A stretch of 64,000 nt of DNA from a virus, in IMG/VR virus record IMGVR_UViG_3300050821_008578, positions 14,262 to 78,261 of that record, one strand, 5' to 3'. A program made the position numbers and the translations under genes. This document shows, piece after piece, positions 26,281-31,777 of the stretch. Every line of letters starts with the position of its first letter. Within the stretch, counting starts at the first letter, position 1. The notes under the pieces are model-generated. The model worked only from the letters and a program-made list of their open reading frames with translations, was not told where the DNA came from and made no database searches.

Positions 26281-27093
26281 TTATTTAATACTTTCATAAA
26301 ATTGCTCACAAGCTTCATTATTAAAAGGAATAAATTTACTCATTTCTAGATTATTATTTATAATTCCTTCTACCAAAGATAGATCTTGAGTTTGACCATT
26401 TATTCTCAAATTAGAATTATTATTACAATAACTTACAAATTTATCTGCTAGTTCACCCAATCCTAAAAATTTGAGATAATTATATCCAAATACATATACT
26501 GGGTCATCGAATTTCTGAGTATGTACTTCACATTTATTTAAAGTTGGTGATTTTAACTCTTTAGATAAATTTTTATTATATTGATAGTTATTCTTAGTTG
26601 CTGTTTCTGTACCCCAGCATGTACCTTTAATTATCTTACCACCATTACGATTAAAGCATCTATCAATCATTGATTCTCTTTTATCATAAAAGAAATATTG
26701 ATAGAAAACATTATTATACCCAAATTTATTATGTATTGAATCTAGATTATATACTGGGCTAAGAGTTAATGGGTATCCTTCACAAATAAAATTCTTATTA
26801 CTAAATTTTTTAATTAACCAATAAACAAACCAAGCACCAAATCCTGTATTTAAATAATCTAGACCTGTCCAACTATGTAATTTACTTGCTCTACCCAATG
26901 CATATTTACCAGTTATAAATATATTTAGATCTGGAAATTCAATAGCAATGGGACATTTCTTATTTTTAAATTCAGTATGATAAATTTGATAATTATAATT
27001 TTTACTTAATAAGAATCTTAATAGCTGTTCAACTCTAGTACCTTTACCTGAACCTGAAATACCTTTAAGTTGTGCATATGAAGAAGTAATCAT
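26281..27093 (-). CDS. P-loop kinase, probable 5-hmdU DNA kinase
   Basis: Motifs 'LKGISGSGKGT', 'GKY.....WTGLD' and 'ICEG'; adjacent to the AADT gene. Confidence 0.78.
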   Translation of the reverse strand: MITSSYAQLKGISGSGKGTRVEQLLRFLLSKNYNYQIYHTEFKNKKCPIAIEFPDLNIFITGKYALGRASKLHSWTGLDYLNTGFGAWFVYWLIKKFSNKNFICEGYPLTLSPVYNLDSIHNKFGYNNVFYQYFFYDKRESMIDRCFNRNGGKIIKGTCWGTETATKNNYQYNKNLSKELKSPTLNKCEVHTQKFDDPVYVFGYNYLKFLGLGELADKFVSYCNNNSNLRINGQTQDLSLVEGIINNNLEMSKFIPFNNEACEQFYESIK

Positions 27094-27095
27094 TT

Positions 27096-28118
27096 TTATA
27101 TTTCCAAATCTTTATATTGATTAAGTTCAGGTAATGTTCCTGTATCCAAAAATATATTCATTCTTGATTTATCTATTTTCTCGTTTACTATAGTATTACC
27201 ATTAGGAACACATTCTTTCATCCAGTCATAAATAATATTAAAATCTACCCCATAAAAATATGTTTTAGATTTATCAATATCCTCTAACAGTCTTGCCAAA
27301 TAATAACCAAGATAACGTCCATCTTTACGTCTAAATAATTTTTTAAATGAACATAAAGCAGTTTCAACATAGAAATAATCTACTTTAACATCTGGAAATC
27401 TTAGTTTAATCTCATTTATAATAGAATCAGTTTCATAATCAAACCATTTTATCATAGCTGAAGTATATTTAACTGATTGTTTTACTTTTTTAGTTCCATT
27501 ATCTATATAAATTCTAGATGCTAATTCTGGTTTATCAAGAATATAACATAATCCATCAGTAGGACTTTGAGTATTCATGCCAAATTGTATTGAAGTTGGT
27601 TCAATATTTAACCCACAACAGTATTTAAGATGTTGCATATAAAAGAATAAAACATATCTACCAAAATATCTAATATTACTTAATTCAGATTTAAGTTTAT
27701 TATAATTTACTTTAGGATCATCACTATTACAAATATCTTTGAAATATTGTTCTTGTGTTCTACCAGCTAATAGATCTTTATAACTAGAAATAATTAAATC
27801 TAATTTACCACGATTCCATTTTACATCCGATTGATGATGAATCTGTTTGTAATTGTTTCTATTCCAAACTTTAATATCTTCTAAATCAATATTTTCAAGA
27901 TCTGGAATATAATTGAATATAGCATAAGCTGAAGCGGCATCATAAGTAATACCATAAAGAAGACAGAAATAATATCGCTGTTCTAAATTATATTCTTGTC
28001 TTTCAAATAAATAATTAGTAACAGGAATAGCAGTATCTATATCATTATTCCTATACTGCCATACATAATATTTTATAAATGCTTCTCTACGATTCTCAGG
28101 TAGGCGAAAATCCATCAT
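27096..28118 (-). CDS. Amino acid:DNA transferase (aGPT-Pplase clade 2)
   Basis: Motifs 'DFRLPENRREAF', 'EQRYYFCLLYGITY', 'FGRY..FFY' and 'ETALCSFKK.....RYLGYY'. Confidence 0.88.
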   Translation of the reverse strand: MMDFRLPENRREAFIKYYVWQYRNNDIDTAIPVTNYLFERQEYNLEQRYYFCLLYGITYDAASAYAIFNYIPDLENIDLEDIKVWNRNNYKQIHHQSDVKWNRGKLDLIISSYKDLLAGRTQEQYFKDICNSDDPKVNYNKLKSELSNIRYFGRYVLFFYMQHLKYCCGLNIEPTSIQFGMNTQSPTDGLCYILDKPELASRIYIDNGTKKVKQSVKYTSAMIKWFDYETDSIINEIKLRFPDVKVDYFYVETALCSFKKLFRRKDGRYLGYYLARLLEDIDKSKTYFYGVDFNIIYDWMKECVPNGNTIVNEKIDKSRMNIFLDTGTLPELNQYKDLEI

Positions 28119-28501
28119 TTATCCAGATATGAGCGTTTACTTCCAGGACTATCAATAATAACTACACAATTATCTGAACCACATTTACATTGAAATGATG
28201 TAGATAATTTACTTTCATTATCTAAATAATTAAAAGTTATTTCTTCTCCAATGCTAATATATTTTTTAGCCCTCATAACTCTATTAGTTTTATCTACATA
28301 ACAATTTGGTGAACAACTATGATTTGTATAAGCACCCCATGGATTTACAACATGTAAATTGGGTGATAGTTCAATTGAACGTAAACTAGAATTTTGAGAA
28401 AATTCACCCATATCTAAATTAAATACTTCTGCATCTGGTAAGAATAGATTATTAGCAACTAATGATACTTGCCCAAATTTATTTTTCTTGAATGTTAACA
28501 T
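28115..28501 (-). CDS. SET-domain methyltransferase with post-SET Cys cluster
   Basis: Motifs 'NHSCSPN', 'GEEITFNY' and 'FQCKCGSDNC'. Confidence 0.92.
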   Translation of the reverse strand: MLTFKKNKFGQVSLVANNLFLPDAEVFNLDMGEFSQNSSLRSIELSPNLHVVNPWGAYTNHSCSPNCYVDKTNRVMRAKKYISIGEEITFNYLDNESKLSTSFQCKCGSDNCVVIIDSPGSKRSYLDK

Positions 28502-29950: not shown

Positions 29951-30249
29951 TTTGTACTTTGTACCATACCAAGTTGTTGGGAATATTTATAATATTTATT
30001 CACTTTTTCAGTTCTTTTTTTAATTTCACTTTCAAATGTTTGATCGCATTGAAATATATTCTCTCCAGTCATTATTCCTAAAATAACATGTAAATCAATA
30101 AGTTCATCTTGAAGCCGTTCAGCATTATTTTTACTTTGACCTGGTTGAATTTCATTAAATCCAAATTGTTGAGTTTTCAATGCTCTTTGTGCAACTTCTG
30201 TACATTCTTCTGCCAATTTGGTAAGAAGAAATTGAGATCTTGTCATCAT
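29947..30249 (-). CDS. MazG-like NTP pyrophosphatase domain protein
   Basis: Motif 'LAEECTEVAQ...LQDELIDL'. Confidence 0.7.
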   Translation of the reverse strand: MMTRSQFLLTKLAEECTEVAQRALKTQQFGFNEIQPGQSKNNAERLQDELIDLHVILGIMTGENIFQCDQTFESEIKKRTEKVNKYYKYSQQLGMVQSTK

Positions 30250-30254
30250 TTATT

Positions 30255-31037
30255 TTAGCCTTTACTTTTAGTCTGTTGGTATTTATTATGTCGTTCTAAA
30301 TTAAATTCAATCTCAGTAGGGAATTTATATCCATTCCATCTAAGTGATTCTATTGGTTTATCATTTAATGCTGCTTCCATAAAATCTCTGCAATATTCAA
30401 AAGTGCTTTCTACTACTTCAGGATCCAAAGTGGCATAGAAATGACGAAATTCAATAGTACCATGTTTTTTAGCTGAACTCAAGTTAACACTATACCGCCT
30501 ACCAGTTTGGGGTAATACTCTACCGTCTTTTACTTTATAAAATGAATTAAAAAAGTCTTCTAATGTTTCAGCATTCATACAAAATTTGTATTTCCAATCT
30601 GGTAATGACTGTCTATCAACTTTTGCATAACCCCATGCTGCTGCATCCATAAGTGGGTGTTTAGTGGGGTTGAATGTTCTTGATAAAATATATTCAGCAT
30701 TAATTTGAAAATAAGATAAAATTTTCTTTAATGCACTTAAATCTTCATTCAATCCTGGATAAGAAACATGGAAATGCGTGTGACTACGATGGGTTACAGT
30801 TACACCTGGTAGTAATTTAACAGCTAATTCAAATAATTCTTTTTGTTCTTTGATAGTATTAGTTGGTTTAGTATTCACTTCACCACCAATATCATGTAAC
30901 TTACCTGATGGATCAATTGCTATGCCATCTGAATTTACAATATCTTTTTCATTTGAATTCCAAGATAATCCATCAGGTAATACAATAGATCTAGATACAT
31001 CTGAAAATTCATATTCGGCGCCAAAAGTAAAATTCAT
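30255..31037 (-). CDS. Amidoligase (COOH-NH2 ligase) family protein 2
   Basis: Motifs 'FGAEYE', 'GGEVNTKP', 'HFHVS', 'RYSVN' and 'TIEFR'; paralog of 29123-29950. Confidence 0.87.
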   Translation of the reverse strand: MNFTFGAEYEFSDVSRSIVLPDGLSWNSNEKDIVNSDGIAIDPSGKLHDIGGEVNTKPTNTIKEQKELFELAVKLLPGVTVTHRSHTHFHVSYPGLNEDLSALKKILSYFQINAEYILSRTFNPTKHPLMDAAAWGYAKVDRQSLPDWKYKFCMNAETLEDFFNSFYKVKDGRVLPQTGRRYSVNLSSAKKHGTIEFRHFYATLDPEVVESTFEYCRDFMEAALNDKPIESLRWNGYKFPTEIEFNLERHNKYQQTKSKG

Positions 31038-31777
31038 AACTGCCAATCCTGAAGATTAATTCCTTCAATTTTATCTAATATAACAACCTTATTAGCTTGT
31101 AATCCATAAACCGTTCCCGGTTCTGTTTTGGTTATATTTAACAGCTTAGTAGAGTCTTCAAAACCTACTAAAGACCTTTTAATAATCTCTTTGGTTGAAG
31201 CTACAATAGTAAATTTTGAATATCCTTCTAGTTCAGCATAATATAATGGACGTCTACCATTACGATAGAATTGAATATTACCATCAACCCATAATTGACA
31301 TATAGCCATAGAAAAATGTATATCATCCTGATTTTTGCTTAAAGTGAGAGGGTTAACACCATTTGACATTTTAATATGGGCAATTTCAGTATCATTAGTA
31401 GTTTTGCATTCTACATTAAATAACGTTTTCCACTGATTTAGGTTAGCTTGAGTTATTACCCCATTCATAGAAATAGATAATTCACCATCAGCAATAGGTT
31501 GTGCATTTTTAATATCTGGATCACCCGAGGTACTATATCTTGTATGTGCTATAAGATTAATAGATCCATATTTTTGGATCTCTTCTTCAATATGAAACCA
31601 GTACTTGTCTGTAAATTCTCTTGATGGAATTTTATCTTTAAGTGTTGTAAGTCCATATTTAGAGATATAAGAAACACCAGTACTATGTTTACCTCTAATT
31701 TGACTTTCTTCCAATAATTTACGAACTATTGGTAAATCTCTAACATCATTTGATCTAATACCTATTACACTACACAT
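31034..31777 (-). CDS. Class II (Ntn) glutamine amidotransferase
   Basis: Probable start MCSVIG gives an N-terminal Cys. Motifs 'RGKHSTG', 'HTRYST', 'NG.I' and 'TNDTE'. Confidence 0.92.
   Translation of the reverse strand: MCSVIGIRSNDVRDLPIVRKLLEESQIRGKHSTGVSYISKYGLTTLKDKIPSREFTDKYWFHIEEEIQKYGSINLIAHTRYSTSGDPDIKNAQPIADGELSISMNGVITQANLNQWKTLFNVECKTTNDTEIAHIKMSNGVNPLTLSKNQDDIHFSMAICQLWVDGNIQFYRNGRRPLYYAELEGYSKFTIVASTKEIIKRSLVGFEDSTKLLNITKTEPGTVYGLQANKVVILDKIEGINLQDWQL

Follow-up and report, generated by a model that had tools for sequence, protein, structure and literature searches.

An eight-gene operon in an uncultured soil phage

The window analysed here is a stretch of 64,000 nucleotides from record IMGVR_UViG_3300050821_008578, the DNA of an uncultured soil phage. 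On its minus strand, eight translationally coupled genes run from 31777 to 26281 in the order GATase, amidoligase 1, MazG-like, amidoligase 2, GNAT, SET, AADT and P-loop kinase, with successive genes either overlapping by 4-23 nt or separated by gaps of 2-5 nt. All eight families that the first-pass annotation had read from the sequence were present on this strand in the place and order it gave, and its end coordinate for the GATase, 31777, is a real ATG start. HMM searches returned Pfam matches for most of these families, while the MazG-like protein and amidoligase 2 were matched through PHROG. The TS-like, dNMP kinase and HMUDK_hel/aGPT-Pplase1 genes lie 2.6-5.6 kb downstream of the operon; the first-pass annotation had seen them 3-6 kb away, and Pfam identified the TS-like, dTMP-kinase-like and HMUDK_hel genes there. 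Radical SAM, DAO-type flavin and PLP decarboxylase proteins gave no match in the 78 kb record (estimated to be 42% complete), in agreement with the first-pass annotation, which saw no PLP decarboxylase, radical SAM or flavin lyase.

The divergent TS-family enzyme (20686-21783, minus strand; PF00303, E 1.4e-12) scores far below the TS equivalog cut-offs and matches phrog_3676 (E 5.8e-84). It has the catalytic PCN Cys and a uracil-type Asn in GINI, and by sequence is a probable dUMP hydroxymethylase. The dNMP (dTMP-type) kinase (21783-22397, minus strand; PF02223, E 1.3e-6) matches TIGR00041 well below its cut-off, has a 44% identical orthologue in L002, the closest relative of the window locus, and probably acts on hmdUMP. 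The helical HMUDK_hel/aGPT-Pplase1-type protein (22802-23701, minus strand; PF18723, E 8.6e-53) is kept with the cluster in L002, L036, L035, L169 and phage Simon, and is possibly a second DNA transferase. The MazG-like all-alpha NTP pyrophosphohydrolase (29947-30249, 100 aa; phrog_4856, E 1.5e-23) carries EECTE and DELID motifs and had no Pfam match and no PDB sequence match. Although it was initially listed in the tailoring run, it is more likely a nucleotide-pool enzyme, which probably clears dTTP/dUTP.

The P-loop kinase (26281-27093; PF18747 HMUD2, E 2.3e-28) has the P-loop GSGKGT, and its tblastn matches are in ViI-like phages, where they adjoin the AADT. It is of the type of ViI gp243, whose 5-hmdU DNA kinase activity has been demonstrated (PMC8989533). 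Monophosphorylated 5-PmdU is competent for the subsequent transfer (Lee et al. 2021, PMC8989533), so that the 'pyrophosphorylated' 5-hmdU of the first-pass annotation is outdated. The AADT (27096-28118; aGPT-Pplase2 family, PF18724, E 2.4e-19) was modelled with AF2 at a pLDDT of 94.5, and its best PDB fold match was PaMx11 gp46/PUGT (8z2n, Foldseek prob 1.0). An ETxLC motif is found at residues 252-256. The glycine-binding Lys150 of PaMx11 gp46 aligns with a hydrophobic residue, a pocket comparison that is tentative because the alignment is weak (hhalign E 0.044). A GRY motif is invariant throughout the GATase-linked AADT clade to which this protein belongs, in fused and unfused members alike.

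The GATase (31034-31777, 247 aa; PF13522, E 7.9e-9) is a stand-alone class II (Ntn) protein that begins MCSVIG, placing a Cys at position 2. About 60 of its 68 homologues share the M-C start, and C2, R80, N105-G106 and D129 are invariant in alignment A2. A profile search of the PDB found PurF and GlmS as the nearest solved relatives, and EgtC was not among its matches. By these features the protein looks like a genuine glutaminase. Its stop codon overlaps the ATG of amidoligase 1 as ATGA.

Amidoligase 1 (30255-31037, 260 aa from the ATG) matches PF12224 at the cut-off (E 1.7e-4). Its AF2 model (pLDDT 93) gave GshA, GS, YbdK and GmaS as top Foldseek matches, and it is predicted from the model to be a minimal GS/GCS-fold ATP-dependent carboxylate-amine ligase. 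One of these fold matches is gamma-glutamylmethylamide synthetase, an enzyme whose acyl acceptor is an alkylamine. Amidoligase 2 (29123-29950, 275 aa), which matched only phrog_2443 (E 4e-4), is a paralogue of amidoligase 1 (33% identity, E 3e-44) that retains all the catalytic residues invariant in the amidoligases (GxExE, GxE, HxH, R and ExR). Both have orthologues, as a pair, in L002, and an amidoligase homologue in Vibrio phage 2.275.O adjoins QueF, which makes an aminomethyl base.

The GNAT N-acyltransferase (28479-29126, 215 aa; PF00583, E 1.4e-8) has the acyl-CoA motif RQKGYA, and a GNAT of equal size lies just upstream of the AADT in 45 of 80 related loci. The small SET-domain methyltransferase (28115-28501, 128 aa; PF00856, E 6.6e-10) has NHSCSPN and GEEITFNY motifs and the post-SET Cys cluster CKCGSDNC. 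Its PDB matches were SET lysine methyltransferases and BurB (9l4t), which we take to be a small-molecule SET enzyme and which would fit a substrate other than DNA. Protein lysines are the normal SET-domain targets, many non-DNA substrates exist for GNATs and amidoligases, and the phiEco32 and Marvin modules have been proposed, in work cited in PMC10580990, to act on cell wall or metabolites. Part of the tailoring set (GATase, ligases, GNAT, SET) might accordingly act on protein, cell wall or a metabolite, its genes sitting in the operon for co-expression only. We regard this as highly improbable, given that over 100 loci on differing phage backbones have such genes sitting between an AADT gene and a kinase or TET gene, and that AADT::GNAT and GATase::AADT fusions exist. 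The SET gene is also linked to the AADT in L002 and L085, and the three closest relatives keep the SET-AADT adjacency, even though L085 carries an inserted homing endonuclease. Among the variable partner enzymes, most modify amines: GNAT, GS-like ligase, FkbM (L035) or SET methyltransferase, and opine dehydrogenase (L002).

Linkage of the GATase to the AADT in related loci

GATase and amidoligase genes have been reported alongside AADT and kinase genes in metaviromes, with no function assigned (PMC8989533; PMC13229309). Among loci with AADT relatives, 68 of 80 from IMG/VR and 54 of 80 from metagenomes had a GATase gene beside the AADT, two counts that are not independent because IMG/VR derives from JGI metagenomes and the collections overlap. 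The usual order is GATase, then GNAT or amidoligase plus GNAT, then AADT, and no gene separates GATase from AADT in L034, L035, L036, L052 and L098. The amidoligase is absent from more than 45 related loci that have a GATase. Three minimal clusters have a GATase and lack an ATP-dependent ligase, namely L036 (kinase, GATase, AADT::GNAT fusion, HMUDK_hel, TS), L169 (GATase::AADT, kinase, GNAT, HMUDK_hel, TS) and L013 (TET, kinase, GATase, GNAT, AADT).

Fusions of GATase (N-terminal) to AADT (C-terminal) form nine protein clusters, P0118-P0126; two contigs, 57% identical to each other, show the fusion as a single unbroken frame. The fusion proteins begin MCG, retain the catalytic E[TS]xLC motif in the AADT domain, and have the domain order of PurF, GlmS and AsnB. 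The window AADT is 27-36% identical to their C-terminal domains. Single fusions were also found of GATase to GNAT (P0114) and of GATase to an amidoligase (Amidoligase_2; P0117). Fusions of merely consecutive pathway enzymes exist, such as P0114, P0117, the AADT::GNAT fusion of L036 and the reported kinase-PLP-AADT fusions (PMC8989533), and the GATase::AADT fusions therefore indicate a shared pathway rather than ammonia channelling. Collectively, the adjacency, including the ligase-free loci, and the nine fusions link the GATase to the AADT itself rather than chiefly to the ligases, and point to glutamine-derived ammonia rather than an amino acid as the group that AADTs of this clade would transfer. 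We propose that the window AADT is an ammonia:5-PmdU transferase. In the window, the GATase lies 3 kb away from the AADT and abuts amidoligase 1, an arrangement that runs counter to this proposal. So does the PLP decarboxylase encoded in L002, which suggests an amino-acid carboxylate somewhere in the L002 pathway.

The first-pass annotation had instead paired the GATase with the ligases. In that case 5-PmdU would receive a free amino acid, for instance Gly or Glu, from the AADT, ammonia from the GATase would feed the GS-like ligases that amidate or extend the amino-acid carboxylate, and GNAT and SET would modify the amine. Amino acids or amines are the substrates of every AADT characterised so far (PMC8989533, PMC13458397). 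Ammonia is the native substrate of the GS fold, which makes a GATase-ligase pair chemically natural; the two genes overlap here, the GATase directly precedes the amidoligase in every locus having both, and such pairs are also present in other phages for which thymine modification is not known (PMC10580990). This reading nevertheless leaves the GATase without a partner in the ligase-free loci, minimal clusters included, and sets one GATase::ligase fusion against nine GATase::AADT clusters. That one fusion, P0117, is represented by a lone sequence from a contig of 2.7 kb, where a read-through could account for it. We therefore consider the amino-acid route rather unlikely.

The GATase-like protein could also be an Ntn amidohydrolase or gamma-glutamyl peptidase (EgtC-like) that donates no ammonia, and instead removes or transfers a gamma-glutamyl group placed on the DNA adduct by the ligases or the AADT. 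In the EgtA/EgtC and PuuA/PuuD pathways, a gamma-glutamyl group is added and then removed or transferred. GS/GCS-like ligases typically activate the glutamate gamma-carboxyl, the residues that hold glutamine by its alpha-amino and alpha-carboxyl groups would bind a gamma-glutamyl amide just as well, and the Pfam description of Amidoligase_2 (PF12224) names a GAT-like thiol peptidase as a neighbour. The PDB profile search gave PurF and GlmS rather than EgtC, however, the GATase is retained in loci without a ligase, and an N-terminal GATase fused to an AADT resembles true amidotransferases, so that a peptidase role appears improbable.

A proposed pathway to a modified thymidine

The evidence supports the earlier reading of the cluster as a 5-hmdU-based thymidine hypermodification operon, with an unusually rich tailoring set. 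Because none of the tailoring enzymes known so far, namely PLP decarboxylase, radical SAM and FAD lyase, is encoded in the cluster, 5-NeOmdU and 5-NedU are unlikely products, as the first-pass annotation had supposed. By homology, the TS-like enzyme and dNMP kinase would supply hmdUTP, with the MazG-like NTPase probably clearing dTTP/dUTP, and 5-hmdU would thus be incorporated into DNA at replication. The P-loop kinase, by homology to tested enzymes, would convert 5-hmdU in DNA to 5-PmdU. In the key step, the GATase would hydrolyse glutamine and the AADT would use the freed ammonia as nucleophile to displace the phosphate, forming 5-aminomethyl-dU (5-NmdU) directly. The two proteins would act as a split class II amidotransferase, with chemistry like that of PurF, in which ammonia displaces the pyrophosphate of PRPP. 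The primary amine of 5-NmdU would then be elaborated: the two GS/GCS-like ligases may each use ATP to form an amide with a carboxylate, likeliest that of an amino acid such as glutamate, the GNAT may cap an amine with an acyl group, and the SET enzyme may N-methylate an amine. Direct acetylation of 5-NmdU by the GNAT would oblige the ligases and SET to work on another amine. We judge this sequence, from ammonia displacement to acylation and methylation, to be an even call. The predicted product is an acylated, methylated aminomethyl-uracil side chain, probably an undescribed DNA base. Judged by gene content, every gene of the minimal clusters L036, L169 and L013 would have a role under the ammonia model. 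The simpler, widespread relatives (GATase, GNAT, AADT, kinase) are predicted to make 5-acetylaminomethyl-dU, the base proposed for PaMx11, and would reach it without a flavin lyase.

Comparison with known systems

The PaMx11 5-NmdU/5-AcNmdU pathway comprises gp46 (AADT), gp47 (FAD lyase), gp48 (acetyltransferase) and gp49 (kinase) (PMC8989533, PMC11472151). The window shares with it a kinase, AADT and GNAT adjoining a TS-like hydroxymethylase, the AADT fold with its ETxxC catalytic motif, and the predicted intermediate 5-aminomethyl-dU. The minimal relatives parallel gp46-gp49, with the GATase replacing the FAD lyase (PMC8989533), and in the window, which has no FAD lyase match, the GATase likewise takes that place. 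In contrast, sequence search does not connect the two AADTs, which have diverged too far, the two GNATs are not orthologues, and the window adds two ligases, SET and MazG. The metavirome TET/JBP (T-dioxygenase)-ParB-GATase-AADT-P-loop kinase clusters (PMC13229309; Lee 2021 Figure 2) share the module of GATase, GNAT and/or amidoligase, and AADT, their AADTs being 36-40% and their GATases 32-42% identical to those of the window. They differ in making 5-hmU post-replication by a dioxygenase and in having a PF18751 kinase, whereas the window has the TS-like hydroxymethylase, dNMP kinase, HMUDK_hel and PF18747 kinase, and adds duplicated ligases, SET and MazG. Salmonella phage ViI (5-NeOmdU) and Pseudomonas phage M6 (5-NedU) follow the same logic from 5-hmdU through 5-PmdU to the AADT, and the window kinase is of ViI type. 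However, ViI-type AADTs are only ~21% identical to that of the window, and these phages lack a GATase and rely on Ser or Gly together with a PLP decarboxylase or a radical SAM enzyme, neither of which was matched in the window's record.

PurF and GlmS share with the GATase the N-terminal Cys nucleophile, Arg, Asn-Gly and Asp, and their glutaminase is N-terminal to the acceptor domain, as in the fused relatives. The displacement of a phosphate ester leaving group by ammonia in PurF matches the proposed step, but in the window the glutaminase is encoded as a protein of its own, and it is a base within duplex DNA that would accept the ammonia. In dG+ synthesis by phage 9g, the Gat domain of Gat-QueC also gives nitrogen to a phage DNA base hypermodification (PMC6884629), although with a 7-deazaguanine base, another acceptor enzyme and nitrile-to-formamidine chemistry. 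Finally, the phage amidoligase (PF12224) and GAT-II module (Iyer et al. 2009; phiEco32, Marvin and OM43 phages, PMC10580990) places the same two Pfam families side by side but is not linked to AADT or kinase genes, whereas the pair in the window is embedded in a DNA modification operon in which the GATase is more constant than the ligase.

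Organisation of the cluster and its genome setting

The record that holds the window is 78 kb long, with a completeness estimate of 42% and a GC content of ~28%. Nearly every gene between 64 kb and 16.3 kb is encoded on the minus strand. Profile searches assigned families to eight overlapping or nearly abutting genes at 31777-26281 (-), in the order Ntn glutamine amidotransferase (GATase), amidoligase, MazG-like NTPase, second amidoligase, GNAT, SET, amino acid:DNA transferase (AADT) and predicted P-loop 5-hmdU DNA kinase. The run of eight families that the first-pass annotation had read at 26281-31777 was thereby borne out, end coordinate included. 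Next downstream are two small ORFs and the gene for a BRCT-containing NAD-dependent DNA ligase (23698-25545, -), which lies between the tailoring operon and the precursor genes. Then follow genes for HMUDK_hel (aGPT-Pplase1), a dTMP-kinase-like protein, a divergent member of the thymidylate synthase family and ribonucleotide reductase.

Directly upstream of the cluster, an NAD-dependent sugar epimerase/dehydratase-like gene (32000-32740, -) matches family profiles at its N-terminal Rossmann part and C-terminal third only; the central part, which holds the catalytic Tyr-x-x-x-Lys motif in this family, appears to be absent. It was rejected as a member of the pathway, as it was found in no related locus and apparently lacks the central catalytic part. 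A tRNA-Ser gene (anticodon CGA) was called by ARAGORN at 33827-33912 (-). The N-terminal ~560 residues of the family A DNA polymerase (PolA; 36577-39612, -) have no Pfam match, and a UDG fusion in this region was rejected on that ground. The ORF of 222 aa that follows PolA (35710-36378, -) is 30% identical to the post-PolA ORF of L002, the locus most closely related to the window, and is, judging by this similarity, a conserved unknown.

Megablast of the cluster against cultured phages gave no match, and PolA and the AADT are <45% identical to any entry in the phage collection. Parts of the window occur in soil metagenome runs only, three of which contain 26-43% of the sampled words; this is indicative only as to habitat, and no RNA run was listed as containing window sequence. 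The scan of genome contigs gave a single match, in a WOR-3 MAG, so that a host could not be inferred. A promoter scan was uninformative, with fewer sites than in the shuffles.

The AADT and kinase point to a phosphorylated thymidine intermediate

The window AADT (27096-28118, -) matches PF18724 (aGPT-Pplase2) with an E-value of 2.4e-19 (70.4 bits, cut-off 26.2). Its profile matched no PDB sequence even at E 10, and a fold search was needed. The AF2 model (pLDDT 94.5) gave as best PDB matches 8z2n and 8z2m (prob 1.0, TM 0.52-0.61), both of PaMx11 gp46 (PUGT), followed by Ogg/AGOG glycosylases; the solved gp46 glycinyltransferase was the only significant PDB neighbour. The catalytic motif of gp46 is Glu-Thr-x-x-Cys (PMC11472151), and hhalign, in a weak alignment, places AADT E252, T253 and C256 on its residues E243, T244 and C247. 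These three AADT residues, together with the N-terminal D26 and D28, are invariant in the AADT family alignment. The gp46 glycine contacts Trp146 and Lys150 correspond, in a tentative alignment, to AADT Tyr155 and Phe159. A single-protein locus scan seeded with the AADT returned no loci, and a metagenome scan for its closest relatives (protein clusters P0002-P0013) returned short contigs only.

The kinase (26281-27093, -) matches PF18747 (HMUD2; E 2.3e-28), has the P-loop GSGKGT and matches ViI-like phages by tblastn. ViI gp243 phosphorylates 5-hmdU in DNA (PMC8989533), and by analogy the window protein is predicted to be a P-loop 5-hmdU DNA kinase of the gp243 type. The thymidylate synthase (TS)-like protein has the catalytic Cys and a uracil-type Asn, and falls well short of the equivalog cut-offs for thymidylate synthase, as expected of a hydroxymethylase. 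The MazG-like protein matched phrog_4856 (E 1.5e-23), with both the EExxE and ExxD metal motifs present, and had no match in Pfam, NCBIfam or PDB sequences. Its gene was found in none of the TET-based loci compared; since those loci need no dTTP exclusion, it probably serves precursor-pool control. Collectively, we consider it very likely that the cluster modifies thymidine through phosphorylated 5-hmdU in DNA (5-PmdU).

The GATase resembles PurF and GlmS and is fused to AADTs in some relatives

The longest ORF of the GATase opens at GTG 31819. The real start is ATG 31777 (gene 31777-31034, -), which places a Cys directly after the initiator Met (MCSVIG), and a Met-Cys start was found in all complete homologues. 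All 35 aligned sequences share R80, N105-G106 and D129. By comparison with the PurF and GlmS motifs, we take these to be the glutamine-binding Arg, the oxyanion Asn-Gly and the alpha-amino-binding Asp, equivalent to PurF Arg73, Asn101-Gly102 and Asp127 and to GlmS Asp123. In a HMMER alignment of the GATase with PurF, the HxRYST and hNG motifs line up. The family profile matched PurF and GlmS in the PDB, and EgtC-type hydrolases were absent from these matches; that the GATase acts as a hydrolase is a less likely reading.

When the GATase profile was used to look for longer proteins, it returned nine clusters (P0118-P0126) in which the GATase, a separate protein in the window, forms the N-terminus and an AADT the C-terminus. 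The fused AADT domain is 27-36% identical to the window AADT over its full length and keeps the catalytic Cys motif. In two contigs, 57% identical to each other, the fusion lies in one uninterrupted reading frame. One GATase::GNAT and one GATase::amidoligase fusion were also returned by this search. With the AADT as seed, the longer-protein search recovered none of these fusions, a blank that reflects a limit of sensitivity, because the GATase-profile search did find them. Downstream of the fused gene in locus L169 come genes for a 5-hmdU DNA kinase, a GNAT, HMUDK_hel, a TS-like protein and an HD nucleotidase, and locus L036 has kinase and GATase genes ahead of an AADT::GNAT fusion (3477-5060; 527 aa). 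The fusions with the GATase suggest that the AADT may use ammonia as its substrate. Complex prediction from the AADT and GATase alignments gave a score of 0.00 without controls, and is evidence neither way.

The GATase accompanies the AADT across metaviromes

An alignment-seeded scan of IMG/VR yielded 80 loci with AADT relatives 36-42% identical to the window protein, and their neighbours were identified by tblastn with window proteins and a few Pfam checks. The GATase adjoins the AADT in 68 of the 80 loci and is the most constant partner of the window's AADT clade, kept even where no ligase exists. The P-loop kinase PF18751 was found in 71 loci and a TET/JBP dioxygenase in 62. A GNAT of the window's size lies directly before the AADT in 45 loci, and a single amidoligase with a shorter GNAT was found in 22. 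A metagenome scan, whose collection overlaps with IMG/VR, gave the same neighbour pattern. In this synteny search, which the first-pass annotation had proposed, the AADT-GATase module appeared widespread and the gene set of the window differed from that of most loci. Lee et al. 2021 (PMC8989533) and a 2026 T-dioxygenase paper (PMC13229309) mention clusters of the kind found in these loci, and in both the GATase and amidoligase are listed as co-occurring only, without a role.

The first-pass annotation had proposed that an amino acid is transferred and then amidated by the ligases in a glutamine-dependent manner. This model retains genuine support: the genes for the GATase and amidoligase 1 directly adjoin each other, ammonia is used by GS-type ligases, and GATase and amidoligase pairs are found in other phages. 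However, it leaves both the many ligase-free loci and the GATase::AADT fusions unexplained.

In contrast to most loci, the window and L002 use a hydroxymethylase route rather than TET/JBP, and have two orthologous ligase paralogues and a SET gene adjoining the AADT. L002 has in addition, between SET and kinase (L002:11402-14891), an opine (octopine/nopaline) dehydrogenase-like gene, a third amidoligase and a PLP decarboxylase, pointing to a different product again, which may be an N-carboxyalkylated amine. SET and AADT also occur together in the fragmentary locus L085 (AADT 60% identical), despite an inserted homing endonuclease. In L035, an FkbM-type methyltransferase gene (10959-11675) directly follows GATase-AADT.

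Two further phage loci stood out. In Vibrio phage 2.275.O (MG592671.1; 9881-15089), a homologue of the window amidoligase (29% identical) adjoins a QueF-like reductase, with QueC, a stand-alone Ntn aminohydrolase and GTP cyclohydrolase I as other neighbours; from this context, the ligase family may also acylate 7-aminomethyl-7-deazaguanine. The unannotated sewage phage Simon (PQ683277.1; 6852-15084), a relative of M6/Yua, has genes for an AADT, an amidoligase, a low-molecular-weight phosphatase, an extended HMUDK_hel, Nmad5, a TS-like protein and an HD protein. It may offer a tractable system for the ligase step.

The tailoring enzymes

Amidoligase 1 reaches 22.0 bits with the Amidoligase_2 profile, which is just the cut-off (22), and aligns with it in the C-terminal third only; amidoligase 2 has a PHROG match only (E 4e-4). 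The two are paralogues with 33% identity, and the metal/ATP-binding residues E11, E13, E56, H91, H93, R184, E199 and R201 are invariant in 21 sequences, both paralogues included. The confident AF2 model (pLDDT 93) shows the GS/GCS fold: it matched only glutamine synthetase (GS), gamma-glutamylcysteine ligase (GshA), YbdK and gamma-glutamylmethylamide synthetase (GmaS) among its top Foldseek matches, with moderate TM values of 0.31-0.48. The GNAT matches PF00583 (E 1.4e-8), and its acyl-CoA motif RQKGYA fits R/Q-x-x-G-x-G/A.

The SET protein matches PF00856 (E 6.6e-10) and SET proteins in the PDB. It has the pseudoknot motif NHSCSPN, GEEITFNY with the catalytic Tyr, and the post-SET Cys cluster CKCGSDNC. 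An IMG/VR locus scan with SET returned only the contig of L002 itself and one weak match. The gene context argues for a DNA-borne amine as the SET substrate; that the tailoring genes have targets other than DNA is less likely.

Discussion

The kind of system described here is known, and co-occurrence of its genes has been published. Within the literature searched, neither the gene set of the window nor its SET link appears to have been described, and the same holds for the GATase::AADT fusions and for the ammonia hypothesis.

We propose as the simplest reading, with the chances evenly balanced, that AADTs of the window's clade serve as the acceptor component of a class II amidotransferase that uses glutamine-derived ammonia to make 5-aminomethyl-dU. 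An exocyclic methylene intermediate would form from 5-PmdU, by the mechanism proposed for gp46, and glutamine-derived ammonia would add to it, yielding 5-aminomethyl-dU. From there, the window's two ligases, GNAT and SET would go on to extend the side chain. Under this ammonia model every gene of the minimal clusters has a role, and it explains why the variable neighbours mostly acylate, alkylate or methylate a primary amine. A more elaborate version, which we regard as rather unlikely, ends in a capped, short peptide-like chain on thymine: after ammonia has given aminomethyl-uracil, the two GS-like ligases would add two residues in turn, the GNAT would cap the end and SET would methylate the DNA-adduct amine. 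If so, both a SET enzyme acting on nucleic acid and ATP-dependent amide ligation on a DNA base would be firsts, and the AADT family would gain a glutamine-dependent 'DNA amidotransferase'.

Through thymidine hypermodifications, phages protect their DNA against restriction enzymes and other nucleases; the pathways are also a source of enzymes for labelling DNA and for sequencing chemistry. To our knowledge, every characterised AADT pathway begins with an amino acid or polyamine. A glutamine-dependent route, if true, would be a new entry reaction for an apparently very common metavirome module (at least 120 of ~160 loci, with some overlap between the two collections) and would explain GATase genes left without a function in two published surveys. 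The window has the richest tailoring set among the loci compared (two ligases, GNAT and SET), which makes it a promising place to look for a new DNA base and for enzymes able to ligate, acylate or methylate an amine exposed in the major groove.

Among the closest known systems is that of PaMx11. A search of the 78 kb record for an FAD lyase of the PaMx11 type, which converts N-alpha-GlyT to 5-NmdU (5-aminomethyl-dU), gave no PF01266 match. The cluster may work like the PaMx11-type 5-AcNmdU pathway but is not a member of it. The ammonia model would reproduce the PaMx11 pathway with the GATase in place of both glycine transfer and the FAD lyase.
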